A program made the position numbers and the translations under genes. Of a stretch of DNA of 64,000 nt, positions 1-50,752 are shown in pieces. Position 1 is the stretch's first letter, and the number at the start of each line of letters is the position of its first letter. Source of the DNA: Blastocatellia bacterium (lineage in GTDB: Bacteria > Acidobacteriota > Blastocatellia > DASRDY01); contig DASRDY010000170.1 of the NCBI GenBank assembly GCA_035652355.1, positions 9,037-73,036 of the forward strand, in the 5' to 3' direction. The notes beneath the pieces were generated by a model. That model was given only the letters and a program-made list of their open reading frames with translations. It ran no database searches and was not told the origin of the DNA.

Positions 1-296
1 TATAAATTGACCATGCTAAAAAGTACCAATCAAGTTTTGCAGAACTCGTCTGAATGCTCTTCTTCCATCTCCATGGCGCTTTCATAACTTGCTGAAATTG
101 TATCGCGATATTTTACGACCTTAATCCAGCTTGAAACTGGCATTTTTCGTCGTTAAACTTCGTTTTCTTTGCATTAGCCCATTTCGCATCTGTCATATCC
201 AAAATTTAAGAAACATAGTTGGGTCCCCAGATCGCTCCAACGAGCGACAACAGTGTGGGTTGGGTTCCTTCCTGTGTATTGGGGGTAATCTGCACT

Positions 297-1256: not shown

Positions 1257-1302
1257 TGTTGAAGCGTCGCACGAGTTCCTGCAATAAAACGCCCGTGGAT
1301 AA

Positions 1303-1338
1303 AAAGTACTGTACTTATAAACGAAGTACAGTAACTTT
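1303..1338. terminator. Near-perfect inverted repeat AAAGTACTGTACTT-7nt-AAGTACAGTAACTTT followed by TTTTAT, directly after the integrase gene. It is a putative intrinsic terminator or a recombinase binding site.
   Basis: Hairpin seen directly in the sequence, followed by a T-rich tail. Confidence 0.35.
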
Positions 1339-1648
1339 TATCAATCGCGTAAAGGAGGCAAGATTTTACCCGCGTAAAAACGTGTGAGTTAGCTCGCTTT
1401 CCCTATGTCTGCGTGCTTAAGCTAATAATAGATTGCGCCGTATATTTGTTCAAAACTGAAAGTAGGGGAATCCCTCCAAGATTTCCGCAGGGCTGCCGCC
1501 CTTCTTGAGGCGATATATGATTGATCCAAGGTTTATTCTCGTGCCTTTGATCTTTATTGTGCCATCACTTGTCTGCGCGGGTGGCACTTCAAGCTTTTCT
1601 CCGCACCTAACCATAATTTGGAGTATACATCACATCGGCATCGAGCTT

Positions 1649-2836: not shown

Positions 2837-3056
2837 GGTGTATCACTGTGGGTTTAAAACCTGTGAACTTCAAACATTGAAATGATCGTGATTTCTAATT
2901 GTATGAGAAAAGGGGGCAAGAACTGTAAGAACAGGTTGCCCCATGAGTTGTCACTGAGGAACACTCCGGCCGCTTAGGCCAGAATCATTACTGGTTCTAT
3001 CTTTTGTGTTCGGTGATTAAATGAAACAAATGTAGCAACGCTGGCAGGACTCAAGA

Positions 3057-4094
3057 CTAACTTGCTTTCTTTGGTCGGTCTGCCTCAAAGACTTGCTCGA
3101 CATTGATATACCGGCCATCAGAACTGGGTTTCGTGGTCACAAGACAAGGAATATTAAGGATCTTCCCTTCCGTAATTTGCGATACCGGCACAGCGTAGCC
3201 AGCATCAGCAATCCGGGCGGAGAGCTGCTTTTCTGTGCCAAAGAGTTTGATGACTTTGCCCGCGACTTCCACATTGATGAAACATCGCCTCCCCCACTTA
3301 CTTTCCGTCGAACCAATATCTTTCAGGAGGGCTTGCTGGAAGACCGGACCTTGTGCGGGCGGTACTGGTTTAAGTCCCTTTCCATTATCTTTCTGACTTA
3401 CGGGTTGAGCCGGTGGCGGACCAATATCCAGGAACTCGCGAATGATGGTGGTTTGTAGTTCGAGGGCAGATGCAGCCTTGGATTTGATGTCATCGGTTCG
3501 CTCTGGATCAACGGGGAAATCAAGTTCGACTGACACAGAATCAATCCGGCCATCAGGACTGAGACTACGCTTAATGAGCATGCGGGATCTAGGAATTACT
3601 GTAATGGATTCCGGGCCGTACTTTGATGGTGGGCAAAACTCGGTGGCTTCTGCTGCTGCTTCGGCCTCATCGCGTTCAATGGCTTGTTCTTCGTACCAGG
3701 CGTCAGTCGCTTCATCATCAATCTCAACCGTGGTTTCGGCGTAGTCGTATTCATCATCTGGGCCTTGAGGCTCGGTTTTTTCGCTGTCGAATTCAATCAC
3801 TGCGGCAATATGCCTACAGGAATAGTTTGGATCAGCTCTTTTGACTTGAAAATCAGAACACGTGCAGTGCAGTCGACCGTGATCAATGGTGACGAGATAA
3901 CTCTTTGCCGGATCAAAAGGCAATCTCACTCGGTATCCTTCATCTGTTTTGACAACAGACAAGTACGTGTCCTTTCGTTCCGTCCGTTTCTTTCGTAACT
4001 GGGAACTCATGCGATACTCTCCTTTGCTTGGTATGGTGTATAAAAGAAATTGCGGTTTCGGGGCAGTTTTTAGGCCGGGTGACATTTGGGCCAC
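3057..4094 (-). CDS. SWIM zinc-finger domain protein with an acidic linker and an uncharacterized C-terminal domain
   Basis: The CxC..CxH SWIM signature reads HGRLHCTCSDFQVKRADPNYSCRHIAAVIEF. The central stretch is rich in D/E. The true start is probably an internal Met (MSSQLRKKR). Confidence 0.55.
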   Translation of the reverse strand: MAQMSPGLKTAPKPQFLLYTIPSKGEYRMSSQLRKKRTERKDTYLSVVKTDEGYRVRLPFDPAKSYLVTIDHGRLHCTCSDFQVKRADPNYSCRHIAAVIEFDSEKTEPQGPDDEYDYAETTVEIDDEATDAWYEEQAIERDEAEAAAEATEFCPPSKYGPESITVIPRSRMLIKRSLSPDGRIDSVSVELDFPVDPERTDDIKSKAASALELQTTIIREFLDIGPPPAQPVSQKDNGKGLKPVPPAQGPVFQQALLKDIGSTESKWGRRCFINVEVAGKVIKLFGTEKQLSARIADAGYAVPVSQITEGKILNIPCLVTTKPSSDGRYINVEQVFEADRPKKAS

Positions 4095-4168
4095 ACGAAT
4101 CCTATAGAACTGCCCTACACTGGTGCGACGGTGATCAAACTGGCGGGTTTCTAATGTGGCGCTATCAT

Positions 4169-4912
4169 CTAGCTGAATTGCGGCAAGAAACCGGCAAGGC
4201 GGGACGTCATTCGGAACTGGGCAACAGGACTGAGGTCCTTAAAGGCTGAGGTAAAGGCATTAGACAGTGACCAGAGATTTCGGCCCGAAAACTCCTCATA
4301 GTGCGGATTGAAGTAGTAGTCGTGGACCGTGTTCATCAGTTGCTTGGGGAAGTCAGACTGGATGAATGCCTGATAGATGATGAGCTTGGCCTGCGAATCG
4401 TAGAGCCCTCGCCGCTGCCAAGCAGCGATCTGGTGTTCAAGCGAAGCGAAGTTCCGCTGAATCTTATCCACTCCGACTGAGATTGCCTGGGAGAGTTCAA
4501 GTCCTGGCGTGTGTTTGTGCTGGATCGGCAGGAAATCGCCGTGGAACGCCATGTTTGCACAAACTAAAACACGGTATCCTGCAGTGAGCGCTAGCCGCAT
4601 GCTTTTATCATTTCCATGCCTGAGGCCAATGGCGAAGTTGACGCCACTGGATTCTACTGCAAGGGTCATAATGCCAAAGAGCTTCATGCCGTTCGGCGAG
4701 ACTGCATATTCATCGTGCTTGACGTGAATATGGCGAAACGAAAGCGTTTCGATGAGTAAGCCCACAACCTCATCATGCGGGATTGGCCGATGAGTTGCCG
4801 TGGGAGTGGGTGCCGAAATATCCTTCAGCTCCTCCCGGGTGATCTTCGAAGTGCCGCGCTGGGCGATAAGCACAGCTTGAGCCATATCGTTATTCCTCCT
4901 TTCAACGTTCAT
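4169..4912 (-). CDS. DUF932-like (phage/plasmid-associated) domain protein
   Basis: A 247 aa ORF whose overall pattern resembles DUF932/DUF945 proteins found on ICEs and plasmids. It overlaps the upstream small ORF by 4 nt (ATGA). The family assignment is from memory and not verified. Confidence 0.45.
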   Translation of the reverse strand: MNVERRNNDMAQAVLIAQRGTSKITREELKDISAPTPTATHRPIPHDEVVGLLIETLSFRHIHVKHDEYAVSPNGMKLFGIMTLAVESSGVNFAIGLRHGNDKSMRLALTAGYRVLVCANMAFHGDFLPIQHKHTPGLELSQAISVGVDKIQRNFASLEHQIAAWQRRGLYDSQAKLIIYQAFIQSDFPKQLMNTVHDYYFNPHYEEFSGRNLWSLSNAFTSAFKDLSPVAQFRMTSRLAGFLPQFS

Positions 4913-5145
4913 TGCGCCTCCTCAGCAATTCTATTGACCACTGTTTCTGCCGTAGCGTGGACTTCCTTCAATCGATTGAGGCGTAGTTCCTGCAATCGCT
5001 TGTTGAGGCCAGCCATTGCTTCGCGGTCATCAGAGCTGGTGATCGGTTGTTCCTTGGCCGCTGCCGACAAAGCAAGTCCGATGAGACGAAATTCTTGGCT
5101 CGTCAGGTGCGTGACATACGTAATCGATACCTCAATGTGAGGCAT
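4909..5145 (-). CDS. Small hypothetical protein (about 79 aa), translationally coupled to the DUF932 gene
   Basis: ORF 4909..5277. The internal Met at 5145 is preceded by GGAGGA 9 nt upstream, so the shorter start is preferred. Confidence 0.4.
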   Translation of the reverse strand: MPHIEVSITYVTHLTSQEFRLIGLALSAAAKEQPITSSDDREAMAGLNKRLQELRLNRLKEVHATAETVVNRIAEEAQ

Positions 5146-5389
5146 ACCATTTATTCCTCCTATGAATGTGATTGGAAGCTTTGGAATCAAAGCTCCAGGT
5201 GAACTGAGGGCAGCATAACAAGCAGACAGAATCTGAATAGTGAGGAAAATTTGCCGCATCCGGCAAATTTTCCTCACTTATATTTTCTATACCCCACTGC
5301 TACGGTATTGATATCCAGTCGGAAAGTTCATAGTCACATCTGCCACTGAATACGTCTGTCATCACTTCGCAAGTAACCCATTCCTCTCA

Positions 5390-6385
5390 ATGCCTCTTGA
5401 TTTTCAACAATCGATCAATCGTATTATGTGCGGGGATGCTTCCGAGGTCTTACGGCAATTCCCAAGTGACTCGATTGACTGCGTGGTTACGAGTCCACCT
5501 TACTGGCGGCTGCGTGATTATGGGGTTGCTGGGCAATTAGGACTCGAACCGACATTTGAAGAATATATCGAAAACCTTTGCAAAGTCTTTGATGAAATTC
5601 GAAGAGTCCTGAAGCCTTCCGGTACCTGCTGGGTGAATTTAGGCGACACGTATGCCAGCGGTCGAAACAGGAACAAAAATTTCAGTCCGCGCTATGGACA
5701 CGCTTCAGGTGCACGAAAGCGGGAAGCGATTCGGCCGAGTGCTACAACATCGCTTCCTCCAAAATGCCTCCTTCAATTGCCGTCCCGGTTTGCTTTGGAA
5801 ATGACAGCGCGTGGCTGGATTCTGCGCAACGAAATCATTTGGCATAAGCCGAATGCGCTACCGGCAAGTGTCCGAGACCGGTTTACGGTCGATTTCGAAA
5901 AGTTATTATTTTTCGTCAAAGGCAAGCGCTATTATTTTGATCAAGATGCAGTCCGAGAGCCATACCAAGCGCAATCAATTGCACGAATGAATCGCGGAGT
6001 TTCGAACAACCACAAAAACTTGCACGTACCCGGCCAAACGGTGCAAGGAATGCACAGGTCCAGGGCTCGCGGTGATGGTACTAAAGTGAATCCTTTTGGA
6101 AGGAATAAACGCTGTGTGTGGCGGATTCCGACGCAACCGTTCAAAGAGGCGCATTTTGCTGTATATCCAGCATCTTTGATTGAAACGCCTATTGTGGTCG
6201 GCTGTCCGAAGGATGGGATTGTCTTGGATCCGTTTATGGGCAGTGGCACAACAGCGGTTGAGGCTCTGCGACTCGAACGGCGCTTTGTGGGAATCGAACT
6301 TAATCCTCAATACATCAAAATTGCTCAACGAAGAGCCGCTGACATCATCCTTCGGCCGGACTACATCAATTCGGCGTGTATCTAA
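5390..6385 (+). CDS. DNA methyltransferase (N4-cytosine/N6-adenine, beta-class, DNA methylase N-4/N-6 domain). It is apparently an orphan, with no restriction endonuclease gene adjacent.
   Basis: Motif IV is DCVVTSPPYWRLRDYG (SPPY). The C-terminal AdoMet motif I is LDPFMGSGTTAVEA. Confidence 0.85.
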   Translation: MPLDFQQSINRIMCGDASEVLRQFPSDSIDCVVTSPPYWRLRDYGVAGQLGLEPTFEEYIENLCKVFDEIRRVLKPSGTCWVNLGDTYASGRNRNKNFSPRYGHASGARKREAIRPSATTSLPPKCLLQLPSRFALEMTARGWILRNEIIWHKPNALPASVRDRFTVDFEKLLFFVKGKRYYFDQDAVREPYQAQSIARMNRGVSNNHKNLHVPGQTVQGMHRSRARGDGTKVNPFGRNKRCVWRIPTQPFKEAHFAVYPASLIETPIVVGCPKDGIVLDPFMGSGTTAVEALRLERRFVGIELNPQYIKIAQRRAADIILRPDYINSACI

Positions 6386-7349
6386 AGATTTCGTCAAACT
6401 TCATGCCTTCCGAGTCAAACTGGGTTTGCCCCACGTGCTTTGAATAAATGAGCTTCCCATCCTCCATCACCTGAAATGTGCCGCTCCACCCGCCAGGAAT
6501 CGATGCGTTCCACAGCGTAAATTGAAAGAGATTTTCTTTTCCCTTCAGGATTTGATTCGAAACGTCGATCCATTGGCCGACACCTTGATGACTTCCGTTA
6601 TTGGGATCGCCCCATTTTGTTTCCGTGATCATCGTTCCGTTGAGGAAGCAGCGTGCGACATCGTCAGCGTCAGTCACCCGAATTTGCACCTCGTGTGTCC
6701 AATTGGCGAGTCGTTCGTTGGCCTTATTCCCCCACTCTGTTCCAGGAAATTGCGCTGCAGTTTGACGAAAGTAGTCTCGCGCTTGCTGTTTCTGTCGAAG
6801 TTCATATGTGGCATCAGCCATTGTATAACTTGCCTCGGCGGCATGAGGTCCTGAAGGGTAAAGTGTGAGATACCGTTTGGCTCCGTCAACTTTATTTGAC
6901 AACCCGTATTCGGCTTGGACATAGGCGGCAAAAAAGAACTCCCCATCATTATCCAATGACGGATTGAACGTCTTTGCCTTCATCAAGGCCGCATAGGCAT
7001 CGACTTGTTTCGTCTTCATCAGATATTTGGCAATGTCATAACAGCGCTTGCTGGCAGCGGGTTTTAATCCTTCATCGAGAACGAAGGCTGTGTTGAACTC
7101 CTGATCAGCAGCACTTGATTGGCCCAAGCCAAGATAGGTTACCCCCAGCAGCATGTGAGCTTCCGCATTTTTCGGATTGGTTTGAATCTCTTGCTTGAGC
7201 AGAATTGCAGCCTGATCAAACATTCCGGCATCAAGAAACTCTTTAGCCTTGGCAACCTCTTTTGAACCAGAGCACGAGGTGAGTGATAAGGCGATTAAAA
7301 GCATCACAATAGCGTTTAGACAAGGCCACTGCTTCATAAAACTCCTCAA
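6366..7349 (-). CDS. TPR-repeat lipoprotein
   Basis: Signal peptide plus lipobox LTSC. TPR-like A/L/Y-rich repeats are present (MFDQAAILLKQEIQTNPKNAEAHMLLGVTY). Confidence 0.6.
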   Translation of the reverse strand: MRSFMKQWPCLNAIVMLLIALSLTSCSGSKEVAKAKEFLDAGMFDQAAILLKQEIQTNPKNAEAHMLLGVTYLGLGQSSAADQEFNTAFVLDEGLKPAASKRCYDIAKYLMKTKQVDAYAALMKAKTFNPSLDNDGEFFFAAYVQAEYGLSNKVDGAKRYLTLYPSGPHAAEASYTMADATYELRQKQQARDYFRQTAAQFPGTEWGNKANERLANWTHEVQIRVTDADDVARCFLNGTMITETKWGDPNNGSHQGVGQWIDVSNQILKGKENLFQFTLWNASIPGGWSGTFQVMEDGKLIYSKHVGQTQFDSEGMKFDEIFRYTPN

Positions 7350-7575
7350 TTCGTTCGTGAACCGCTGTACTTAAATCCCTGCGTAAGAATGAATGCGGAG
7401 GTCCAGTCCTGACAGCCGCCTTCTCTTTATCTCAGGTATTCTGTTATTCTTCGCTGCAATGATCGATCCGCCAGGATTGGCCACGTGTTGAACACGTCCT
7501 GCCTGCGTCTCTTTTTGGCAGATCAATTAAGAACCCACATTCTATGGAGAAATATCCATAACGACAAGCAAAAAG

Positions 7576-7884
7576 ATGCCTCTGACCAGGAGGTGTCTGA
7601 TGGGGCGTAAACAGCGAGAGCGGCCCGAGAAGCTCGCCGAAAAACTGCTGACGATCAGACAAGCGCTTGGATTTTCGCAGACGCAAATGTGGAGAGCCCT
7701 CGGTCTTGAAGAGAAAAGTAGCTATCACATCATTAGCTACTTTGAAAACGGGAAGCAAGAGCCTTCAATTCTGGATTTGCTGAGGTATGCTCGCTTGGCA
7801 CACATTTCTCTGGAGATACTCGCTGATGATGAACAAGAATTACCGGTAAGAATTACAAAGAAAAAGAAAGTTCCCCGCGAATAG
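7576..7884 (+). CDS. Small HTH (XRE-like) DNA-binding protein, paralog A
   Basis: The sequence LLTIRQALGFSQTQMWRALGL...ISYFENGKQEPSILDLLRYARLAHISLEIL is clearly paralogous to the convergent ORF 7914..8186. Confidence 0.6.
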   Translation: MPLTRRCLMGRKQRERPEKLAEKLLTIRQALGFSQTQMWRALGLEEKSSYHIISYFENGKQEPSILDLLRYARLAHISLEILADDEQELPVRITKKKKVPRE

Positions 7885-7913
7885 AATCGCTTTTATTCAA
7901 TTGCTGTTCAGTT

Positions 7914-8186
7914 CTATTTTCTGTGCAGCAGATGCTTTGGCAGGTCAACCTCATCATCAATGAGCACCTCTGCGTTTACCTTCGCAAGCCTGGCGTACTT
8001 TAACAAAGTAATATACGAAGGTTGCCGTGTACCTTTTTCAAAGTGACTTATATGAGCATTATGAACCGGTGATTTTTCGGTCGTCAGCTGTGCTGCCATC
8101 TGAGGCTGGCTTAATTCAAGGCTCTCGCGTATTTGTTTCAGCTTTATAGCCAAGCGATCCGGTTGCGGTCTTACTTTACGTCCCAT
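7914..8186 (-). CDS. Small HTH (XRE-like) DNA-binding protein, paralog B
   Basis: The sequence LKQIRESLELSQPQMAAQL...ISHFEKGTRQPSYITLLKYARLAKVNAEVL has the same architecture and length as 7576..7884. Confidence 0.6.
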   Translation of the reverse strand: MGRKVRPQPDRLAIKLKQIRESLELSQPQMAAQLTTEKSPVHNAHISHFEKGTRQPSYITLLKYARLAKVNAEVLIDDEVDLPKHLLHRK

Positions 8187-8371
8187 CAGGACCTCCTGAG
8201 GGACTTTCTATGTGCTTAACGCTTCGTAGATATTTCAGTTGCTTTCTTCGCCTATTTAGGCGACGATATTGTTTGTTGAATCGGTCCGCCGCCATGAGCA
8301 GGCAGAACTTACCGTGCAAGCTTGCCAGCCGGATCGATCATTTTTGCAGATCATAGCATAAGGCCAGCGCG

Positions 8372-9130
8372 ATGCAGGACCTGAAGGCGCATTTACATCA
8401 TTGCTTTTGTCTTCTACTGACAGCGCTCCTGTTCCTGCAAATCCCCTATCCAGTGCAGCCCAAGGACACGGCAGATGACGCAGCGATTAAACATGTCCTT
8501 GCGCCATTTGCCGGTCGCACTGTTGACGGCATCTTTATCTACCTCGATCAAATCAGACCAGCACCCGTCAAAGACAGTGATAAACAGTTTCTGATGCGCA
8601 ATATGTCAATCCTCACTGGAGAAACCGGCGTCCGTGATCCAGCGTTGCTTCAGAAACTCAGACAGAAGATCCGCCCTGCTTTGGCACTCCACCGGCGTAT
8701 CCAAGTAGTTGATCTCTATGTTTTCCGTTATCCCTATCCAGTTGCCATGAACAAGCCTGGAGCATTTGTAGCGTTAAGCACTACGATGCTCGATTTGATT
8801 GGCGACGATGAATCGTCCCTATTGGGCACAGTTGCTCACGAATTAGCTCACGAATACGTTGCCTCAGAACACTTTGAAGCTTTGCAGAAACACGATCTTG
8901 CAAAAATGCGGGAATTGGAATTGTTCTGTGATGTCGTAGCTACGGCGACGCTCGTTGCTCTTGGACTTGATCCAGCCCATTATGCATCGCTGCTTGAGCG
9001 GGCAGTGAACTCTTCGCCAGAAGCGGCAAAGATGAATAACGGCGAGAGAGAAATGCCAAATGTTGTGGTGCGAAGACGGTTAATTGCCGAGGTCGCTGCA
9101 CAGCTTACCACCTCAAACTCCTCACATTAA
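8372..9130 (+). CDS. Secreted HExxH-motif protein, a putative zinc metallopeptidase-like protein
   Basis: An N-terminal hydrophobic signal region. The HExxH motif reads VAHELAHEY. No confident family assignment. Confidence 0.4.
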   Translation: MQDLKAHLHHCFCLLLTALLFLQIPYPVQPKDTADDAAIKHVLAPFAGRTVDGIFIYLDQIRPAPVKDSDKQFLMRNMSILTGETGVRDPALLQKLRQKIRPALALHRRIQVVDLYVFRYPYPVAMNKPGAFVALSTTMLDLIGDDESSLLGTVAHELAHEYVASEHFEALQKHDLAKMRELELFCDVVATATLVALGLDPAHYASLLERAVNSSPEAAKMNNGEREMPNVVVRRRLIAEVAAQLTTSNSSH

Positions 9131-9468
9131 GATATCGCTCTTATGTACTCAACGCTTTTCCGCATCAAAGGTTCTCGCACTCAGTCTGTATTGACAGACC
9201 GTTCTGATACATATTCGATATTGACCTATGTTAAGAATGGGCCATAAAATACTTTGCGGCCTACGTTCACCCTGGTTTGAGCCCAGAACAGGTTAGTCCT
9301 ACCGTGAAGCCTGAGACCGTAATATTCAATTAGGAAATCAATTCGCCGCCTTTAACTAAAACAGACGGGTTCATCGAAATCAAGCCTGAAATAAGCCGTT
9401 TGGCCCAGTGATGTGTGGGAATAATGAATACGGTATTATCATACGTTGCTGCTGCCGGGAGGTGCTAA

Positions 9469-12078
9469 ATGCCGTTCAAATTACCGGAAAGTACAACAAT
9501 TTGTCCTGATGATCCAGAAGCGTTATTTCGTGATCTACGAAAGCGCACGATTCCTGGTCTTCTATCGCACCAAGCAGATCTTCTGCGTAGTTATGTGCTG
9601 GTACATACCAAATATCCGGACATCGCCTTGCAGCTACCAACTGGCAGCGGAAAGACGCTCGTAGGATTGCTCATCGCAGAATGGCGGCGCAGAAAATATG
9701 GCGAACGTGTAGTGTACCTATGCCCGACAAGACAACTTGTAAACCAAGTTGCTCACCAGGCCAACCAGAAATATGGCCTTGATGTCCATGCATTCACGGG
9801 ATACAAGAAGAACTATGACGCCAGGAAATCTGCTGATTGGCAGAGCGCTGAAATAGTTGCGGTGACCAGTTATAGCAGTCTGTTCAACATTAACCCTTTC
9901 TTTTCTGATCCAAACTTAATCATCCTCGATGATGCCCATTCGGCGGAAAATTACATTTCGGCTTTTTGGTCTTTGCTGATCGAAAAGTCGAACGCGAATC
10001 ATGAATCAACATTTGCGGCACTGATGAGCATAATAATGCGTTTGCTGCCTAGCTACGATAAATCCCGGCTATCTGCTAGATCTAGCGGACCTGAAGATCA
10101 GCAGTGGGTCGAGAAATTGCCAACTCCAGTGTTCCAAAGCGTTGTGGATGAAGTTATTCCCTTACTCGATGAGTATACCCAGCAATCCGAACTGAAATAT
10201 CCATGGAGGTTGTTACGAGATTCGCTGTCGGCTTGTCATCTTTACGTCTCAAGACAAGCAATTCTCATTCGACCATTAATCCCTCCTTCAAATAATCACT
10301 TACCGTTTTCCGGAGCGAAGCAACGTCTTTACATGTCGGCAACACTCGGAGCAGGCGGCGACCTTGAACGAGTCACGGGTCGTCAACCAATACACACAAT
10401 CCCGGTTCCAGTAGGTTGGGATAAGCAGGGTATTGGCAGACGATTTTTCGTCTTTCCTCGACGTTCTTTTGATGACAGTGAAGCCGAAGGTTTCGCATTA
10501 AAAGCGATTGACCTGGCATGCCGGGCTCTATACCTCGTACCCGACGAGCGCTCTGCCGAGAAGGTCAGGGCACTTATCAAGAGCAGTCTTTCCTGCACTA
10601 CATTTGATGCTACTCAGATTGAGGAATCAAAGGAGCCTTTCGTGCAAAGCAAGAACGCCGTCGCTGTGATTGCAAACCGCTACGATGGTATTGACCTTGT
10701 TGATGACGATTGTAGGCTTCTTTTGGCTGACGGGCTCCCAGGTGGCGCAAATCTTCAGGAGCGTTTTTTCGTTCTTCGGGTAACTGCTCAGCTACTGTTA
10801 GAAGATCGAATCCTAACTCGTCTTGTCCAAGGGTTCGGCCGCTGTACTCGTTCACCAAACGATTATGCCGCTGTTGTGATCTTAGGTGAAAATCTAAATA
10901 AGTATTTACTCGATAAATCCAGAAGACGGTTTTTTCATCCCGAGATTCAGGCTGAACTCGAGTTTGGTATCGACCAGTCAAAGACCGACTCAATCGATGA
11001 TATGCTTGATCAACTTAAGCATTTTTGGGGGCAGGACGGTGATTGGGAGCAAGCAGATAACGCAATCGTAGCACTCAGAAACGGATTAACACAACACACG
11101 CTCCCTGCTACCAGAGAACTGGCGGATTCAGTGATTCCGGAGTTGGCCTACCAATATGCACTTTGGAATGCTGATTTCATTACAGCTCTTGAGCAATGTC
11201 GGGTGGTAATAAGCAAACTTACACATGAAGATCTTCGGGGATATCGTGCTCTTTGGTTGTATCTGGCCGGTTCGGCAGCGTGGCTAGCGTGCCAGAATGG
11301 TCAACTTCAAGACAATGAAATCGCTAAGGATTACTTCCGTAAGGCTCAGGCCGCAGCTCCCGTACTACGCTGGCTAATAGGGTTACAAGCAGACAGCGCT
11401 GATGCTAATTCTTCCTCCATCGTGATCAATACACAGCTAGTGACGATGATTGAGAGATTGGAATCCATATTAGAGAATATGGGCACAATACATGATCGAA
11501 GATATGCATCTGAAGAAAGCGCGATTCTCAACGCCCTGTTACAGAATTCAGATGGCAGGCTTTTTGAGAACGGTCGAGAACGGTTGGGGCGGTTGCTTGG
11601 TTACTCTACTGGAAATTCCTCAGAAGATGGAGCGCCTGACCCTTGGTGGATTGCAGACGATTCACTTTGTTTCGTATTCGAAGACCATGCCGAGGGAAAT
11701 CCCGAAACTGTATTTTCTGTTACTAAAGCCCGTCAGGCGGCTTCACATCCAGACTGGATAATGATAAATTTGCCGGAATGTCAGTCTGCCGAAGTCATCT
11801 CTGTGCTCGTCACTCCTTGCACACGTGCTACAAAGGGTGCAATTCCATCGCTGAAGAAAGTGCGCTACTGGAATTTGGTTGAATTCCGTTCGTGGGCACA
11901 AAATGCACTCCGTGTTTTGAGGGAAATTCGCCGAGATTTTCCTGGGCCTGGCAATTTGAAGTGGAGAACCGCCACCGCTCGAAAGCTCAGCGAAGCTAAC
12001 ATAGCCCCGCAGCAACTCAAGCTCATGCTGTCGCAAACAGCAGCAGACGCTATGATGTTGGTTGGTAGCAAGGAATAA
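9469..12078 (+). CDS. SF2 helicase, DinG/Rad3(XPD)-like DEAH-box type, with a roughly 400 aa uncharacterized C-terminal extension
   Basis: Motif I is LQLPTGSGKTLVG and motif Ia is LCPTRQL. Motif II is IILDDAHSAEN (DEAH-like) and motif III is YMSATLGAG. The Rad3-type motif VI is QGFGRCTRSPNDYAAVVILG (helicase C_2-like). There is no Fe-S Cys cluster between motifs Ia and II. A strong SD (GGGAGGTG) precedes the ATG. Its stop lies 5 nt before the next gene. Confidence 0.75.
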   Translation: MPFKLPESTTICPDDPEALFRDLRKRTIPGLLSHQADLLRSYVLVHTKYPDIALQLPTGSGKTLVGLLIAEWRRRKYGERVVYLCPTRQLVNQVAHQANQKYGLDVHAFTGYKKNYDARKSADWQSAEIVAVTSYSSLFNINPFFSDPNLIILDDAHSAENYISAFWSLLIEKSNANHESTFAALMSIIMRLLPSYDKSRLSARSSGPEDQQWVEKLPTPVFQSVVDEVIPLLDEYTQQSELKYPWRLLRDSLSACHLYVSRQAILIRPLIPPSNNHLPFSGAKQRLYMSATLGAGGDLERVTGRQPIHTIPVPVGWDKQGIGRRFFVFPRRSFDDSEAEGFALKAIDLACRALYLVPDERSAEKVRALIKSSLSCTTFDATQIEESKEPFVQSKNAVAVIANRYDGIDLVDDDCRLLLADGLPGGANLQERFFVLRVTAQLLLEDRILTRLVQGFGRCTRSPNDYAAVVILGENLNKYLLDKSRRRFFHPEIQAELEFGIDQSKTDSIDDMLDQLKHFWGQDGDWEQADNAIVALRNGLTQHTLPATRELADSVIPELAYQYALWNADFITALEQCRVVISKLTHEDLRGYRALWLYLAGSAAWLACQNGQLQDNEIAKDYFRKAQAAAPVLRWLIGLQADSADANSSSIVINTQLVTMIERLESILENMGTIHDRRYASEESAILNALLQNSDGRLFENGRERLGRLLGYSTGNSSEDGAPDPWWIADDSLCFVFEDHAEGNPETVFSVTKARQAASHPDWIMINLPECQSAEVISVLVTPCTRATKGAIPSLKKVRYWNLVEFRSWAQNALRVLREIRRDFPGPGNLKWRTATARKLSEANIAPQQLKLMLSQTAADAMMLVGSKE

Positions 12079-12083
12079 ATCTA

Positions 12084-15000
12084 ATGACCAATTTTGTCCT
12101 CCCATTGGATGCTTTTATCCGTGCTGTAGGAGCAAGTCGTAATGTTCCACATGCGCTTTTCCTCGGTGCTGGCGCTTCAATAACGTCGGGAATGCCTTCG
12201 GCTCAAATGTGTATCTGGGAATGGAAACGGAATATTTTCCTAACGAACAACCTCGGCCTTGAACCCCAATTTGCAGAGTTGTCTCTTGTCAGCGTCCGGG
12301 ACCGTATACAGCGTTGGCTAAATCGGCAAGGGATCTATCCGCCTAATGGCGCACCTGAAGAATACAGTGTCTATATCGAGGCTTGTTTTCCGATTGCAGA
12401 AAGTCGACGATCCTTTTTTCAAGAGAAAGTTCGCGCGTCGGTACCACATATAGGTTATAAACTCCTTGCCCTCTTAGCATCTAAATCACTGATAAAATCT
12501 ATATGGACCACTAATTTCGATCAGCTAGCAAGCCGATCGGCTTCGGCATCGAATGTTGTGCCGGTTGAGATTGGTCTGGACTCTGCTCATCGCATAGTGA
12601 GGCCCACTAGAGCCGGTGAGTTGCTCATTGTGTCCTTACATGGCGATTATCGCTATGATCATTTAAAGAACACAAGCGAAGAGATAAAACGACAGGAGCA
12701 GGATCTTGAACTCGCATTAATTGAAGTAGTGCGAAGCTCCCCTGTTATTATCTCAGGATACAGCGGACGAGATGAGTCGATAATGGTGGCATTATGTTGT
12801 GCCCTAGAACAGAAGGGGTCTAGTCCTTTGTTCTGGTGCGTTCAGGATTCGGATAATGTGCCTAAATCTGTTCTTGATTTGATTTCTAATGCTCGCGCTT
12901 GTGGACGTGAGGCATATATCATCCCAACACAAGGATTCGATGACGTCATGATTCGACTCGCGCTCCATTGCCTTGACGGAGATACTCAAGCTCAAGCAAC
13001 ACGACTAATCGCACAGAATAGTGGGAGTCTAGGCACATCACGGCCTGCCTTCCGAATCACTACTTCCACTCCAATAACGGTCCTTAAAAGTAATGCTTTT
13101 GAAATTGAATGCCCATCGGAGCCGATAGCCTTTGAGCTAAAAAATTGGCCGAAGGAAAAGGTTTGGACGTGGGTGCGAGAGCAAACAGCGGAAAAGACTG
13201 TGACGGCGGTGCCGTTTAAAGGGAAGATCTTTGCCCTTGGGACAATTGAGGATGTGCGAGCCTGTTTTGGGAACAATATCAAAGATATTCCTCGGCCTAC
13301 GCCTCTTCCGGAGGGAAGCCTTCGGTTTGAAGATGGCGCTATCACCTGTTTAATGCGTGAGGCGTTGGTTCACTCCATAGTTCTGGCCACCGGACTTCGT
13401 TCGGATGGATCACGTGAATTATGGGCTGAGGACACGGTTCATGACGAGTCGTTAGAGGGCGAATTGTTTCGAATTTTTGAGTCGGTTCATTTAACCCTTC
13501 GTCAGATTGACGGACGGTCATTTCTCATACTTAAGCCCTCAATCAAAGTGCTGACCATTTCAGGAGATACCGTACCTACTTTGAAGTCCAATGCTTTGAA
13601 GTTGCGGATTCTCGGCTGGCAACACAATAAGGAATTTAATCAAGCTGTCAATTTCTGGCGGAAAAGGCTTTTGACGACTGACCGCTCGGAGAGAATCTAT
13701 GAATATCCTTTTAAGAGCGGCGCTCCGTTCAGGTTCTCAATTCGTCGATCACCCGCTTTTGCGGAGATCACCAGTGATAGAGGAGCACGTGGTATTAATG
13801 TCGACACAAAAATCCGTCCACTGCTTATACAAAAAGGACTTCAAATTGATGAACCGAGACTAGTGTTTTGCAATAGGTCTGGAACGGGTAACGTCAAGAA
13901 CGTACATCCGGTCAGAGGATTGTTGAGTAATCGGCCATTCGATTTTCCGCTTACTATGCGAGGATTAAGCAGCGAAATCCGGATGGGAGTTGTGTGTCCG
14001 AAAGCAGAGGCGAAGGCACTTCAATCGTATCTGATGCGGTCGGAACAACAGATTGAGCCTAACCGTCAAGAGTTAGATTATCTCCCGTCTTATCCTGGGT
14101 TTAAAAATGCTTTCGGTTTGGAACTCAAAATTGGAGATCAGGGTAATGCCGGATGGGTCATCTGCCCTGAACCAAATGGACAAAACGATCAAGCCAATGC
14201 ATTGGAGATCGGTAAAAATATTAACAGATCAATTGATACTCTTCAGGCTTCCTTTGCACCAAACCTTGTGCTCATTTTTTTTCCTGAACGGTGGTCGCGT
14301 TTTCGCGGATACAATACAGACCACGAACATTTTGACGTTCACGACTTTGTCAAAGCCAGCAGTGTTCAAAAAGGCATCGGGACACAGTTTTTGGACCAAA
14401 GTACTTTGGCTGATGGACTTCAATGCCGAGTGTGGTGGTGGCTGTCACTGGCATTTTATGTCAAAGCGATGCGCACGCCCTGGGTTCTCGATGAACTCGA
14501 CAGAAACACTGCATTCGTCGGGCTCGGGATGAGCTACGACTTTAGCCGCGATAAAAATAAACATATCGTTCTCGGATGCAGTCATATATACAGTTCACGC
14601 GGCGAAGGACTTCAGTATCGCTTGAGTCCAGTCGAGAATCCAGTTTTCTTCGGAAAGAATCCGTTCTTATCGCGAGACGACGCAAGACGTGTCGGAGAGC
14701 AGGTTCGTGAACTGTTCTTTGAGTCCCGGTCAACCCTGCCCGACCGAGTTGTAGTTCATAAACGCACAAGATTTACAAAGGACGAACAGCAAGGACTGAG
14801 AGAAGGGCTTAGCGGCGTGTCGGAGATCGACATGCTGGAAATCATAATTGATGATGCCTTACGCTACGTAGCTTCGGCCGCTGATGCGCGAGGACTTCTG
14901 CACGAAGACAATTATCCGGTTCAACGAGGAAGTGTTGTTCGACTTGACGATTTTACAGCCCTCTTGTGGGTACATGGCGCCACTTCGGCAATCGGCAATC

Positions 15001-15242
15001 GCCGTTATTATCAAGGAAAAAGGCGAATACCGGCTCCTCTTAGGATCAGACGCCACGCAGGGCAATCTGACGTAAAGATTCTTGCAGAAGAAATTCTGGG
15101 TCTTTCAAAAATGAACTGGAACACATTTGATTTATATACGAAGTTACCGACGACGGTTCAGTCATCAAACGAAATCGCCAGGATCGGATCACTCCTTACT
15201 CCTTTTCACCCTCGGGGGTACGATTTCCGATTGTTCATCTAA
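12084..15242 (+). CDS. Fused SIR2-APAZ-PIWI protein (short prokaryotic Argonaute with an N-terminal SIR2 NADase-like domain; SPARSA-like, single polypeptide)
   Basis: The N-terminus has the SIR2-like Rossmann motif HALFLGAGASITSGMPS. The C-terminal about 450 aa has a MID/PIWI-like pattern: FVKASSVQKGIGTQFL, AFVGLGMSYD, RVVVHKRTRFTKDEQQGL and RRIPAPLRIRRH at the C-terminus. There is no RDG/DEDX catalytic pattern, which fits an inactive short pAgo. The 1052 aa length fits SIR2-APAZ-Ago fusions. Confidence 0.6.
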   Translation: MTNFVLPLDAFIRAVGASRNVPHALFLGAGASITSGMPSAQMCIWEWKRNIFLTNNLGLEPQFAELSLVSVRDRIQRWLNRQGIYPPNGAPEEYSVYIEACFPIAESRRSFFQEKVRASVPHIGYKLLALLASKSLIKSIWTTNFDQLASRSASASNVVPVEIGLDSAHRIVRPTRAGELLIVSLHGDYRYDHLKNTSEEIKRQEQDLELALIEVVRSSPVIISGYSGRDESIMVALCCALEQKGSSPLFWCVQDSDNVPKSVLDLISNARACGREAYIIPTQGFDDVMIRLALHCLDGDTQAQATRLIAQNSGSLGTSRPAFRITTSTPITVLKSNAFEIECPSEPIAFELKNWPKEKVWTWVREQTAEKTVTAVPFKGKIFALGTIEDVRACFGNNIKDIPRPTPLPEGSLRFEDGAITCLMREALVHSIVLATGLRSDGSRELWAEDTVHDESLEGELFRIFESVHLTLRQIDGRSFLILKPSIKVLTISGDTVPTLKSNALKLRILGWQHNKEFNQAVNFWRKRLLTTDRSERIYEYPFKSGAPFRFSIRRSPAFAEITSDRGARGINVDTKIRPLLIQKGLQIDEPRLVFCNRSGTGNVKNVHPVRGLLSNRPFDFPLTMRGLSSEIRMGVVCPKAEAKALQSYLMRSEQQIEPNRQELDYLPSYPGFKNAFGLELKIGDQGNAGWVICPEPNGQNDQANALEIGKNINRSIDTLQASFAPNLVLIFFPERWSRFRGYNTDHEHFDVHDFVKASSVQKGIGTQFLDQSTLADGLQCRVWWWLSLAFYVKAMRTPWVLDELDRNTAFVGLGMSYDFSRDKNKHIVLGCSHIYSSRGEGLQYRLSPVENPVFFGKNPFLSRDDARRVGEQVRELFFESRSTLPDRVVVHKRTRFTKDEQQGLREGLSGVSEIDMLEIIIDDALRYVASAADARGLLHEDNYPVQRGSVVRLDDFTALLWVHGATSAIGNRRYYQGKRRIPAPLRIRRHAGQSDVKILAEEILGLSKMNWNTFDLYTKLPTTVQSSNEIARIGSLLTPFHPRGYDFRLFI

Positions 15243-15402
15243 GGTTGCTGGTGCGAATGCCATAGAATGATATCCCTGATCTGACGATCCAGAGATGAGA
15301 GATCGGTGATATGCATTTCGGTGCGGCCTACACTCATATTGAACTAGCCCAACCAGTCTATTCCCGCAGTTTCCTCCGGTTACATTCTGAAGAACACATC
15401 GT

Positions 15403-15700
15403 GTCTTGTTGCTTTGTCTCCAGCGTTAAAAAGGCGGGATTGGCCGGGTGCCCACGGTCACCGGAATCGATGCTCACGCCGCCGGAATTAGTTGCTCACG
15501 ATGAGCCGGAATATGCAGTAATGACTGATGATATTTTTAAAGTGCGAGTTTTCTTGAATGCTGCTTTTCGAATAACACACAATTAGAGCGCGAGTCTTAT
15601 AGCTTTGTCCCCAGCATTAAAACAGTGGAGGTGCTCGCGTCGCCGAAGCGAGTGCTCACGATGAGCCGAAATATGCAATCGATTGCCCGCATCACCAATT
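15403..15700. repeat. Tandem imperfect direct repeat. Two copies of about 105-125 nt lie at 15403..15530 and 15594..15700 and are roughly 70-75% identical. They sit immediately downstream of the pAgo gene.
   Basis: The blocks GTCTTnTnGCTTTGTCnCCAGCnTTAAAA and GTGCTCACGATGAGCCGnAATATGCAnT are shared between the copies. Seen directly in the sequence. Confidence 0.5.
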
Positions 15701-15776
15701 CTAAACCGTTTCAATCTGAACGCGGTCATACCAGTATTGGATAAGGCTACGACAACTAGTTCAAATTATGAGGGAG

Positions 15777-17243
15777 TCACTGAATCCACAAGCCAAACCC
15801 GAGCGGATCGAGTAGGCCACTGTTGACACCTTCGCCAACAAGAAGCCGTCCCAGACCCCCTGGCAGTGACAAGAGACGTTCTTTTGCGAGATTCGCGACC
15901 AGAACCAACCTACCCGCAATTCGCCTAATTATAATCCCACTATCACCGAGTTGTTCAATGGAATCGCCTTTTATTAGTCGTTCAATATTGAATTCATCAT
16001 TTAATGAATCAAGCACTCTAAGGAGCTCAATTACACTCTTGTGATCGATTGAAGTCGCTACGTTTGCGACAAAATCCTCCAGCATGGGAATTCTATTAAG
16101 GCCCCTCGGATCCGTTTTAGGACCACTATCGGTTCCCTGCTCAGGCCGAAAGCCGTATAGGATTGGAAGATATATATAACATACCCCCGGAAGAAAGGCC
16201 GTAATAGCTATGGCTATCTTAATTCGACGCCACATTCCTTCGATAGTCGTGCCTAAAGTGCAACTGAACGGAAAGGAGCTGTTGAATTCGTATGGACGGC
16301 CTTCGATCACTCGCGGGCTCACTTCATGTTCCTCGAAAGCTGTTACTAACATACGACGTTCACTCTCCTTAAGCAGTGACGTTTTTAATAATATGCCGTC
16401 GTGAGATCGCAAAGCTCGCAATACCGGTATATCTGCACGTAACATTCTGTTTACATGTGAGATTAATGAACCAGGTCTGCCCGTGAGTATTGCCAAAATA
16501 AGGGCGGCAGAGTATGCAAAGTCCGTTAGGGGTGCGTCAAATGAGCCTCTACCGGAAAAATATCGTCTGCCCCAACTATCACAGTTTAGTTGCGGCAGGA
16601 TTTTGAATCCGTACTTTTGTGCGTTTGCCACAATATCCCTCGCATACTGAATGCCGAGGGGGTGGTGCCTTTGACGCTCTCCAAGCTTCTTTCCGTAATA
16701 TGCAACGCTGTCGAGGCGAATGCCCCAGACACCGAGTTCGGCGATAAGAGCTTGGTGTTGCTGTATTGCTGCCTGTACTTCTCCATTGGCCAGCTGAACA
16801 TCAATTGCTCTGCTAGAGAATGTCTGCCATGCCCACCAAATATCCCCCTGTACCGAATGTGGGACAAATACAGACCCTCCTCGCGGCGACAATACACGTT
16901 GCGAAGGGCGAAAAGGGAAAACATGAAGGCGTTCGGCACCCGCCCCTGTTTCAGTCCATTCGCGGCACCATTGATGATTCAATCCAACATGATTATAGAT
17001 CCCGTCAATAATGATCCTTCTCTGCCGCGCCAATCTCCGAACATCCTCCCAAGTTCCAAAGGTAGGATCAACTTTGAACCAGTCAGTAGAGGCAAACCCT
17101 CCGTCTCCATCGGCCGGACCGAAAGGTAATATATGTAAAGCGATACCGGGCGGCAACTCCGTAGCAACCTCGTACAAGGTACCTAATGGCGACTGAATGT
17201 CGCTCCGGATAATACTCTTTGGATAAGCACCGACTATTATCAT
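15777..17243 (-). CDS. Glycoside hydrolase family 13-like protein (alpha-amylase / sucrose-phosphorylase-like catalytic domain)
   Basis: A region I-like IDGIYNHVG and a region II-like GIRLDSVAYY. The family call is tentative. Confidence 0.45.
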   Translation of the reverse strand: MIIVGAYPKSIIRSDIQSPLGTLYEVATELPPGIALHILPFGPADGDGGFASTDWFKVDPTFGTWEDVRRLARQRRIIIDGIYNHVGLNHQWCREWTETGAGAERLHVFPFRPSQRVLSPRGGSVFVPHSVQGDIWWAWQTFSSRAIDVQLANGEVQAAIQQHQALIAELGVWGIRLDSVAYYGKKLGERQRHHPLGIQYARDIVANAQKYGFKILPQLNCDSWGRRYFSGRGSFDAPLTDFAYSAALILAILTGRPGSLISHVNRMLRADIPVLRALRSHDGILLKTSLLKESERRMLVTAFEEHEVSPRVIEGRPYEFNSSFPFSCTLGTTIEGMWRRIKIAIAITAFLPGVCYIYLPILYGFRPEQGTDSGPKTDPRGLNRIPMLEDFVANVATSIDHKSVIELLRVLDSLNDEFNIERLIKGDSIEQLGDSGIIIRRIAGRLVLVANLAKERLLSLPGGLGRLLVGEGVNSGLLDPLGFGLWIQ

Positions 17244-17292: not shown

Positions 17293-18783
17293 TCATGACA
17301 GTCTTGCAAGCTTATTAGCCAGTATTGATATTAATGCTCCTAGCATTACATACCCGGCCATCACCAGAGCAACAACTATTACCTTCCCCGAATTGCTAGC
17401 AGGAGACATTTCACTGAACCCCAACGTTGTGAACATCGCCGCAGAAAAGCAGAGAGAGCGAAAAAATGAGGGCTTTGAAATCACGATATGCTGCGAGAGT
17501 TCATGTCTTGGAAGCCGTATCGACTGCGGGTTCATCGCCCCGTCTCCGTCGGCCTGCTGGCCTGTGCCTGACTCTGTAACGGGCCGATTAATTTGGGGAG
17601 GACTAGAAAGCTCCTCGTATTCAGGGACATAGAACGGAATTCTAGTCAAGATTGTCGCAAAAATGAACAAAACGCAGCATGTGAAGATTGTCCAGCGTGC
17701 TATACTTTGACCGTAATTGCAGGTTATTCCCCAGAGGCGAATGATCAGTCTTTTGCTCTTGCTTTCTGAACTCTGATTCCAGTATTCCATTATTAATTGT
17801 GCGTCCGCCACTCTTCGCCGAATTGAGGGTGTCAACCCCATTATGTCCTGGACCGAATGCGAAAATATGCTATCCGATATAATCGGCGCTCCAAGCAGGG
17901 TAGATTGTATAGGCTCTAACGTCCACATTGGGTCAACAATTCTGGTATTGAATAACGTCGCTAAGTGTAAATTAAGAGAGTCCAGTGAAGGTCTAACCAG
18001 AATGGCTGAGCTTAAGTCCAAACCCACCGCATCAGTGTTGCTAAATTCAACATCTTCGATGCGTGAGCAATCTAACCTTGTATTGCGGATAGAGCACACT
18101 AGAAAACTGGAGCGGCTGATAGTGGAACCAGACAGGATTGCTCTATCAAGATTACATGACTGTAACTCGGTATTAATAATGCTAGCACTGGACAGGTAAC
18201 TTCCGCCCATTCTGCAGTCTGTTAATACTGCGTCGACGAGAGATGCACTCTCAAGATTAGTTTCAGAAAGACTCACGTTAATCAATTTTGCGTTGTCCAA
18301 TACTGCACGTCGACAATCCGAATGACTTAGATCGCAATTCGTGATTACGGCATCTGTTAAATCAATATCTGGAGCTGTTATTCGTGCAAGCGTAGTCCCC
18401 GAGAAAGATGAGTGATGGAATTTCGAATTGGATAGATCGGCCCCAGAAGCATCGGCGCTGGAAAAATCGGCTGATGTCGCGCTTACATTTCTGAGAACCG
18501 CTTCTCGGAGATGTGCTCTTCTGAAGTCCGTACCATCCAGCAGAGCGCCCGTGAGATCGATTCCAGCAAGATCTTGATCGCTTAAATCGGCGGCAATAAG
18601 GTCTGGTATTATCCCAGATTGCCGTCTCCAGACATTCCATTTGTCGACACCCTGCAAAATTTTGTCCAAATGTTCGGCGTTTGCCATTCGCCTCCTTTGC
18701 TTGTGAGTCTTAATTAAGAGTAGAGTAAGTACTAGTAAGCACCTGACCCAACAGACTTGCCGTTTACGATAATAACTGCTCAA
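17293..18783 (-). CDS. Pentapeptide-repeat protein fused to a C-terminal two-TM pore-loop (ion-channel-like) domain
   Basis: Numerous A(D/N)LSxx pentapeptide repeats. The C-terminus has two hydrophobic helices flanking FTTLGFSEM, a pore-loop-like sequence. The likely start is the internal Met at 18687 (MANAEHLDK). Confidence 0.55.
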   Translation of the reverse strand: MSSYYRKRQVCWVRCLLVLTLLLIKTHKQRRRMANAEHLDKILQGVDKWNVWRRQSGIIPDLIAADLSDQDLAGIDLTGALLDGTDFRRAHLREAVLRNVSATSADFSSADASGADLSNSKFHHSSFSGTTLARITAPDIDLTDAVITNCDLSHSDCRRAVLDNAKLINVSLSETNLESASLVDAVLTDCRMGGSYLSSASIINTELQSCNLDRAILSGSTISRSSFLVCSIRNTRLDCSRIEDVEFSNTDAVGLDLSSAILVRPSLDSLNLHLATLFNTRIVDPMWTLEPIQSTLLGAPIISDSIFSHSVQDIMGLTPSIRRRVADAQLIMEYWNQSSESKSKRLIIRLWGITCNYGQSIARWTIFTCCVLFIFATILTRIPFYVPEYEELSSPPQINRPVTESGTGQQADGDGAMNPQSIRLPRHELSQHIVISKPSFFRSLCFSAAMFTTLGFSEMSPASNSGKVIVVALVMAGYVMLGALISILANKLARLS

Positions 18784-50654: not shown

Positions 50655-50752
50655 GGAGGTGCGGGGGTTCTGGTGAATCTCGCGGGCTTCAAACCCGTTG
50701 CGCCCTGACGAGAGTTGGGGTGGGTCGGTTCGATTCCGACACGCCTCCGCCA
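50655..50752 (+). tRNA. selC: tRNA-Sec (selenocysteine tRNA, anticodon UCA)
   Basis: 98 nt. The extended acceptor stem GGAGGTG(C)/(A)CGCCTCC has a T:G wobble at position 6. The anticodon loop is CTTCAAA (UCA). A long variable arm is present. The T-arm is GTCGG-TTCGATT-CCGAC. Discriminator G followed by CCA is encoded, the same 3' pattern as E. coli selC. Confidence 0.7.

Follow-up and report, generated by a model that had tools for sequence, protein, structure and literature searches.

The question raised by the stretch of 64,000 nucleotides analyzed here (Blastocatellia bacterium, contig DASRDY010000170.1; hereafter the window) is whether the gene at positions 12084..15242, which joins a SIR2 domain to an Argonaute-like C-terminus, encodes an Argonaute that slices its targets or one that signals through an effector, and whether it acts alone. 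By its sequence and predicted structure, the gene was assigned to SPARSA-A (clade S1A), short prokaryotic Argonautes (pAgos) with SIR2, APAZ, MID and PIWI in one chain. The best overall explanation, in which we place considerable confidence, is a non-slicing NADase sensor encoded as the distal cistron of a conserved helicase cassette (Table 1).

The gene is one intact open reading frame (ORF) that starts with ATG and runs through 1052 codons with zero internal stops, and the motif blocks quoted in a preliminary description of the locus were all located in its translation: GAGAS at residues 28–32, FVKASSVQKGIGTQFL at 755–770, RVVVHKRTRFTKDE at 888–901 and IPAPL at 982–986. The single-polypeptide SIR2-APAZ-PIWI order proposed there was recovered by PADLOC, profile and Foldseek comparisons. 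The fused pAgo model of PADLOC (PDLC02384) spanned residues 4–1052 against positions 3–1030 of the 1030 in the profile (1277 bits, E = 0), and separate PADLOC models covered residues 20–561 (Aga_SIR2-PNTD1-PNTD2) and 583–1052 (the MID-PIWI part). The sole Pfam match was SIR2_2 (residues 139–257; 3.4e-10); Pfam Piwi was not matched at E <= 0.01, and a PAZ domain was not found in the Pfam and PADLOC scans. Searched with phmmer against solved structures, the protein matched GsAgo (8in8_C) over residues 590–1051 at 1.1e-43 and GsSir2-APAZ (8in8_B) over residues 21–359 at 5e-34, so that the expected similarity to short pAgos proved significant. A 41-sequence family profile improved the matches to the Geobacter SPARSA to 8.7e-63 (Ago) and 2.6e-46 (SIR2-APAZ), the latter reaching residue 435.

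An AlphaFold2 (AF2) model of the protein (predicted local distance difference test, pLDDT, 84.1; predicted template modeling score, pTM, 0.83) had the SPARSA Ago 8y7z_B as its top Foldseek match, with a template modeling (TM) score of 0.84 on the target. Over 612 columns the model also matched the SPARSA SIR2-APAZ 8jl0_A; its match to the long-B RsAgo extended over 823 columns, so that the APAZ-MID-PIWI part overlays an entire long Argonaute. No single-chain S1A structure was among the Foldseek matches of the model in the PDB.

The protein belongs to a large family. At E <= 1e-10 it was matched by 1788 database proteins, full-length relatives being 54–73% identical, and 76 genome loci carry full-length fused relatives at 39–71% identity. 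In a neighbor-joining tree of the fused relatives, built without an S1B or S2 outgroup, it fell among S1A sequences; the S1A placement rests on architecture and model scores. Every defining feature of clade S1A that can be read from a sequence was found in the protein. In the database, the NCBI protein VFC63_12110 (689 amino acids, 'hypothetical protein') is 100% identical to residues 364–1052 only and begins at an internal GTG, though the ORF in the window is continuous. The deposited annotation thus seems to omit the SIR2 domain and part of APAZ.

The PIWI domain had been proposed to be inactive, and its DEDX tetrad positions were mapped against TtAgo, which was taken from plasmid pTT27 and in whose sequence D478, E512, D546 and D660 were verified. 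A 64-sequence S1A MID-PIWI profile was aligned by hhalign with a TtAgo-family profile at a probability of 83% (E 9e-6), pairing residues 616–1037 with TtAgo 285–672. The long-pAgo profile is shallow, the homologue search with TtAgo having given only 15 close relatives, and the mapping of D478 and E512 is therefore ambiguous by a few residues. Two other routes were rejected: hhalign in global mode against TtAgo as a single sequence gave a meaningless alignment, which was discarded, and hmmsearch with the S1A profile reached only the last 55 residues of TtAgo.

In the alignments retained, TtAgo D546 (RVLLLRDG) paired with R894 (RVVVHKRT), which is R in 56 and K in 5 of the 64 relatives and directly follows the beta-4 strand (888–893) of the AF2 model, and E512 paired with P860. 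Aligned without gaps, D660 paired with N1029, a position that is N, S or G among relatives and is located inside helix 1023–1035 of the model; in the profile alignment it fell opposite a gap. For D478, the partner was the invariant G815 when the strand FVGLG was paired with AVGFD ungapped, and D819 in the gapped hhalign path; D819 is present in 57 of 64 relatives and stands at the end of the beta-1 strand (809–818) of the model. Acidic residues occupy no more than one of the tetrad's four positions, and the protein is therefore not a slicer. The GxDV.H and RDG signatures were absent, as claimed, the equivalent strands being FVGLGMSYD (811–819) and RVVVHKRTRF (888–897). IPAPL aligned with TtAgo TPRPL and is a motif conserved in PIWI domains; the fourth catalytic position lies elsewhere, within KLPTTVQSSNEIAR; the conserved C-terminus of the domain is YDFRLFI. 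A TtAgo-like slicing long pAgo has an intact DEDX tetrad together with N and PAZ domains, a combination not found here. In the accessible text of the SPARSA structure papers, the tetrad is stated to be absent from GsAgo, and the residues replacing it are not named.

The binding and catalytic sites that would serve a sensor are intact. The MID residues H753, K757, Q768 and K794 aligned by hhalign with TtAgo R418, K422, Q433 and K457, so that the 5'-end pocket singled out for checking in the preliminary description is complete; H753, K757 and K794 are invariant in the 64 relatives, and Q768 is invariant in the 41-sequence alignment A1. An HK-type MID pocket is typical of short pAgos. The SIR2 N, D and H residues of interest (N144, D230 and H186) were likewise present and near-invariant. 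N144 and H186 aligned with the catalytic N142 and H186 of GsSir2, and D230, S227, R229 and the G28xG30 loop aligned with the NAD+-binding D230, S227, R229 and G25–A37; these residues are kept in 63–64 of 64 relatives. Their roles in GsSir2 were established by mutation (PMC11452484; bioRxiv 10.1101/2021.12.14.472599). GsSir2/Ago is an RNA-guided NADase activated by single-stranded DNA (ssDNA), and its activity is lost in D230A, N142A and H186 mutants (bioRxiv 10.1101/2021.12.14.472599; PMC11452484).

A helicase-nuclease gene, missed in the preliminary description, lies directly upstream. Its product matched DEAD, ResIII and Helicase_C_2 in Pfam and the PADLOC family PDC-S28 (349 bits, residues 10–825), which PADLOC classes as a single-gene candidate. 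The nearest solved relative was Hna (PDB 10uj/9yhn/9ykj; 2.8e-37). The AF2 model (pLDDT 86.4) had the Hna monomer 9yhn as its top Foldseek match (E 1.2e-36, 886 columns), followed by XPD, DinG and CasDinG, and DdmD was not among its top 50 structural matches. The superfamily 2 (SF2) motifs did not vary, either among the 13 helicases of the fetched loci or in the 41-sequence alignment A2. As only a single cysteine (C85) occurs between Walker A and DDAH in the translation, the protein lacks the XPD-type four-cysteine iron–sulfur (Fe-S) insert.

The nuclease-like domain of the helicase departs from the Hna pattern. P723-D724 and E738 are invariant, and the position of the catalytic K729 of Hna is occupied by H740 and is H, Y or N across 113 homologues; the local alignment to Hna was weak (-2.9 bits). 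An invariant K753xxQ756 follows on the helix after H740 (window 11635–11745, residues 723–759). The site could be a migrated-lysine variant of PD-(D/E)XK or an inactive nuclease, and nuclease competence is plausible from the conserved residues. The C-terminal 269 residues, searched alone, gave no significant sequence match in the PDB.

Hna of Sinorhizobium meliloti brings about abortive infection as a single gene. Its product is a DinG-like SF2 ATPase that lacks an Fe-S cluster. It carries a PD-(D/E)XK 3'-5' ssDNA exonuclease and forms an ATP-autoinhibited dimer that is activated by the phage protein that binds single-stranded DNA (SSB). The upstream helicase shares its whole-length fold (two RecA-like domains, no Fe-S cluster and a C-terminal PD-(D/E)XK-like domain) and its SF2 motifs, but is only ~20% identical to it and differs at the K729 position and in the lysine and glutamine of the following helix. 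Furthermore, Hna stands alone and responds to phage SSB, whereas the clade of the upstream helicase is found in an operon with a pAgo.

The two genes are separated by a 5-nt spacer in the window. Across relatives the spacing ranged from -8 to +5 nt, with independent gene calls placing 1- or 4-nt overlaps, and it was retained in more than 15 loci of Planctomycetota, Acidobacteriota and Alphaproteobacteria, whose remaining neighbors all differ. Unbiased clustering of neighboring genes identified the helicase as by far the commonest neighbor of the pAgo gene (12 of 76 genome loci). Eleven of these 12 copies were located upstream on the pAgo strand at a median distance of 0; the twelfth, a distant homologue (L062), was on the opposite strand. 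Counted by loci, a helicase directly preceded the pAgo gene on its strand in 12 of 76, as a full-length gene in 10 and as a remnant in 2, with one more match on the opposite strand. The helicase-linked pAgos are the close relatives of the window protein (63–71% identity) and form one clade, as do their helicases. The same arrangement was present in the metagenome loci L078, L079 and L082, and the cassette was found in all four further relatives picked solely for their long contigs, with 1- or 4-nt overlaps and entirely different flanking genes. The metagenome scan with the helicase as query gave four loci only. At least 24 additional contigs appear to carry both proteins, since contigs of the same length occur in the homologue tables of both. 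Pairwise identities of the helicases and of the pAgos were correlated with r = 0.99 over 78 pairs.

The pairing held in every intact close relative checked, in several phyla. In the clade of the window, translational coupling with the pAgo gene is a constant feature of the helicase gene, which does not stand alone there. Planctomycetota, Acidobacteriota and Alphaproteobacteria are all among the hosts, so that the two genes move together as a cassette, which is inherited and transferred as a unit.

Taken by itself, the pAgo gene is an ordinary addition to the well-populated SPARSA-A family, some members of which have been tested. Single-chain PgSir2-Ago of Paraburkholderia graminis protects ~400–500-fold against lambda and SECphi27 (bioRxiv 10.1101/2021.12.14.472599), and the single-chain S1A fusion of Joostella marina (JomSIR2-APAZ-Ago) lowers NAD in E. 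coli (Koopal et al., 2022). Both have the same one-chain architecture, length and conserved residues as the window protein, which shows ~41% identity to the Paraburkholderia lineage (L053). They differ from it in that its clade, mostly known from metagenome-assembled genomes (MAGs), is preceded by an Hna-like gene, a pairing not described for the tested S1A members. For each half, the best match in both sequence and structure is the SPARSA of Geobacter sulfurreducens (GsSPARSA; clade S1B; PDB 8in8, 8jkz, 8y7z, 8y80), which has in common with the window protein the SIR2 N, H, D, S and R residues, the GxG loop, an HK-type MID pocket, the lack of the tetrad and the conserved C-terminus. GsSPARSA, however, consists of two polypeptides, is ~24% identical and has no reported helicase partner. 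SPARTA (TIR-APAZ with a short pAgo; clade S2A) shares the sensor-to-NADase logic and the MID-PIWI fold (Foldseek TM ~0.8 on target), but has a TIR effector in place of SIR2, is built of two chains and belongs to another clade.

What is new, according to the literature searched, is the defined and conserved cassette that pairs an Hna-like helicase-nuclease with a single-chain SIR2-APAZ-pAgo. No description of an Hna-like/SPARSA-A cassette was found by searches for papers on SPARSA with helicases or on Hna with Argonautes. DEAD/ResIII helicases with PD-(D/E)XK motifs have been noted in pAgo operons, whose operon types were not definable (Ryazansky et al., 2018). The supplements of that study hold no entry for og_34 or og_37 by which its DEAD/ResIII orthogroup could be matched to the window helicase. 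The only known precedent of a pAgo handing targets to a helicase-nuclease is DdmDE of Vibrio cholerae. There, a catalytically dead Argonaute is encoded beside a DinG-like SF2 helicase bearing a PD-(D/E)XK domain at its C-terminus, a gene logic that the cassette repeats with its PD-(D/E)XK-like domain. The DdmD and DdmE models of PADLOC were unmatched at E <= 0.01, and no homology beyond the superfamily level was detected. In addition, DdmE lacks SIR2 and has an INS docking domain, whereas the window pAgo carries SIR2 and is without a clade-specific insertion. The cassette is therefore not a member of the DdmDE family, and the likeness in gene logic is one of analogy.

By analogy with GsSPARSA, PgSir2-Ago and the Joostella marina fusion, we infer the guide type, the oligomerization and the NADase output of the window protein. 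The pocket formed by H753, K757, Q768 and K794 would hold the 5'-phosphate of a small guide, probably RNA, and the guide would pair with invader ssDNA in the MID-PIWI-APAZ channel. Since the DEDX tetrad is absent, the target would not be cleaved. Duplex binding may instead drive oligomerization, aligning SIR2 N144 and H186, and the resulting hydrolysis of NAD+ would cause the infected or plasmid-bearing cell to stop growing or die. The interpretation offered in the preliminary description, in which SIR2 is the effector of abortive infection through NAD+ depletion, is supported by homology, NAD+ loss and abortive infection being predicted from the behavior of homologues.

Regarding the helicase-nuclease, we lean slightly toward the view that it works in the same pathway as the pAgo, whether by exposing or processing the ssDNA of invaders or by serving as a second effector. 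Cooperation of the two, if real, would link short pAgos that signal through an NADase with helicase-nuclease recruitment of the DdmDE type, and would bear on how short pAgos reach single-stranded invader DNA and guides. A stronger version appears doubtful to us, namely that this SPARSA-A subclade recruited the Hna-like ATPase-nuclease as an integral partner in a dual-output system, combining NAD+ depletion with a DdmDE-like handover of the helicase-nuclease onto invader DNA, or using the helicase-nuclease to make ssDNA or guides for the pAgo. Dedicated recruitment in the manner of DdmDE is the less likely subset of same-pathway cooperation. The APAZ protein has been described as the only protein specifically associated with short pAgos, with no other specific partner among 283 RefSeq short pAgos (Koopal et al., 2022); if the integral partnership were true, no earlier short-pAgo system would have had a specific protein partner other than APAZ.

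Two points weigh against the sensor reading of the pAgo itself. Its closest tested relatives are only ~41% (the Paraburkholderia lineage, L053) or ~24% (GsAgo) identical, and D819 might hold the first catalytic Asp position, though the three other tetrad positions are non-acidic. An obligate partnership is opposed by the survey of RefSeq short pAgos and by the fact that single-chain and two-chain SPARSA work alone in E. coli and that Hna needs no second gene to work. Homologues of the helicase at <=57% identity also stand alone, in defense islands or mobile elements or beside integrases. In three loci (L004, L010 and L034), all that is left of the helicase upstream of the pAgo gene is a C-terminal remnant; the pAgo gene has its full length in L004 and L010, whereas in L034 the contig end truncates it. 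A clade-specific docking insertion was looked for in the helicase-linked pAgos, and none was found.

Much of this evidence would be expected if two self-sufficient systems, an Hna-like abortive-infection gene and a SPARSA-A, had been juxtaposed once in a defense island and had hitch-hiked since without cooperating, an alternative that we consider quite possible but do not favor. Relatives of each part function or occur alone (Hna, PgSir2-Ago, and PDC-S28 helicases in islands and mobile elements), the single-gene listing of PDC-S28 in PADLOC agrees with this, and the retention of full-length pAgo genes beside helicase remnants and the lack of a docking insertion in the pAgo point the same way. 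This alternative accounts less readily for the close spacing (-8 to +5 nt, stop and start codons overlapping) that more than 15 loci of Planctomycetota, Acidobacteriota and Alphaproteobacteria retain although their other neighbors differ. Independent systems normally keep their own promoters. The strict co-divergence of both proteins also speaks against independence, and DdmDE shows that a pAgo can use a DinG-like helicase-nuclease. In one further locus (L063:7274-13153), a helicase of a different branch precedes a pAgo of a different S1A branch in the same order and on the same strand, with a spacer of ~75–115 nt. The nearest relative of this helicase (P0236) stands alone beside an integrase. 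L063 may be a second, independent juxtaposition of helicase and pAgo, which also counts against two independent systems.

Two other explanations concern the non-slicing NADase sensor itself. It is very improbable that the gene is a decaying relic, or that its SIR2 is a deacetylase or regulator without a role in defense. The annotation of the identical MAG sequence over residues 364–1052 would suit a relic, and some related loci are clearly degraded: in L060, a deletion across both genes joins helicase residues 1–379 to pAgo residues from ~435. The window ORF, however, is intact over 1052 codons and has kept every catalytic and binding residue, an island with an integrase and a methyltransferase has the gene at its edge, and the SIR2 of SPARSA is closer to the NADase ThsA than to deacetylases. 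A slicing Argonaute with SIR2 as an accessory is effectively refuted, since D819, the one residue in its favor, is set against R894, P860 and N1029 (N/S/G) at the other tetrad positions, the unmatched Pfam Piwi model and the lack of slicing in all characterized short pAgos, GsAgo included.

Table 1. Features of the helicase–pAgo cassette, its surroundings in the window and degraded cassettes in related loci (positions are those of the window unless a locus is named; aa, amino acid residues).
Feature	Position	Strand	Details and basis
First cistron: 869-aa Hna-like DinG/XPD-type SF2 ATPase with C-terminal PD-(D/E)XK-like domain, PADLOC family PDC-S28	9469..12078	+	Pfam, PADLOC, PDB, AF2
SF2 ATPase core	9562..10968	+	aa ~32-500; Walker A GSGKT 59-63, DDAH 154-157, SAT 290-292, motif VI GRCTRS 457-462
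Helicase C-terminal nuclease-like region	11554..11934	+	AF2 secondary structure; P, D, E, K, Q (near-)invariant in 113 homologues
Cistron junction	12069..12083	+	AAGGA Shine-Dalgarno in helicase 3' end; TAA 12076-12078; 5-nt spacer; pAgo ATG 12084
Second cistron: single-chain SIR2-APAZ-MID-PIWI short Argonaute, assigned to clade S1A (SPARSA-A)	12084..15242	+	PADLOC, Pfam, phmmer, AF2/Foldseek
SIR2 NADase domain (predicted)	12141..12983	+	aa ~20-300; G28-A-G30 cofactor loop, N144, H186, S227, R229, D230; Pfam SIR2_2, GsSir2 alignment
APAZ (Argonaute N-domain-like) region	13056..13838	+	aa ~325-585, approximate boundaries; PADLOC, profile, Foldseek
MID domain	13851..14483	+	aa ~590-800; HK-type 5'-phosphate pocket H753, K757, Q768, K794; hhalign to TtAgo
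Predicted inactive PIWI domain	14484..15239	+	aa ~801-1052; tetrad positions G815 (or D819), P860, R894, N1029; alignments and AF2
Promoter-like site TTGACC-18 nt-TAAAAT, candidate operon promoter	9221..9250	+	in 338-bp gap upstream of helicase gene; 10/12 consensus matches
Tyrosine integrase	219-1256	+	
TrwB/HerA-like ATPase	1649-2836	-	PADLOC mad8 match
Three ORFs without assigned family	3057-5277	-	
Type II N6/N4 DNA methyltransferase	5390-6385	+	
TPR protein	6366-7349	-	
HTH_3 regulator, 90 aa	7914-8186	-	weak capH-like and RstR-like matches
252-aa ORF with HELAHE (HExxH) motif	8372-9130	+	
Degraded cassette	L004:8937-9986		
Degraded cassette	L010:9588-9992		
Degraded cassette	L034:9078-9971		
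Degraded cassette	L060:8917-12747		

The cassette is located at the right edge of an island, and the genes further right look like housekeeping genes. The left flank (window 219–7349) looks like a mobile or defense island; no tRNA was found at the island edge, and Rfam gave no family match in window 7000–16500. The helicase start codon (ATG at 9469) has a GGAGG Shine-Dalgarno sequence in front of it. Promoter-like sites in the region were not more numerous than in shuffled sequence, and it is by its position that the site at 9221..9250 weakly suggests itself as the operon promoter. The HTH gene and the HExxH ORF form a divergent pair just upstream of the cassette that resembles CapH/CapP-type regulators. 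A role of the two as CapH/CapP-like regulators of the cassette was considered and rejected: neither gene adjoins the pAgo in the 76 other loci, and the HExxH ORF matched no family in Pfam, NCBIfam, PADLOC or PHROGs.

Some further genes were observed in the window and in related loci. In L004, a Phd/YefM antitoxin gene occupies the region of the lost helicase. The nuclease domain of SPARDA effectors is DUF4365, and in L089 (7862-9898, minus strand) a stand-alone helicase homologue (P0226) adjoins a 678-aa DUF4365 protein on the opposite strand, with no pAgo gene in the stretch shown. Just right of the island in the window, a 496-aa protein (17293–18783, minus strand) combines long pentapeptide repeats with a C-terminal Ion_trans_2 channel domain. 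The sole tRNA gene of the 64-kb window is a tRNA-SeC (anticodon TCA) at 50655–50752 on the plus strand.

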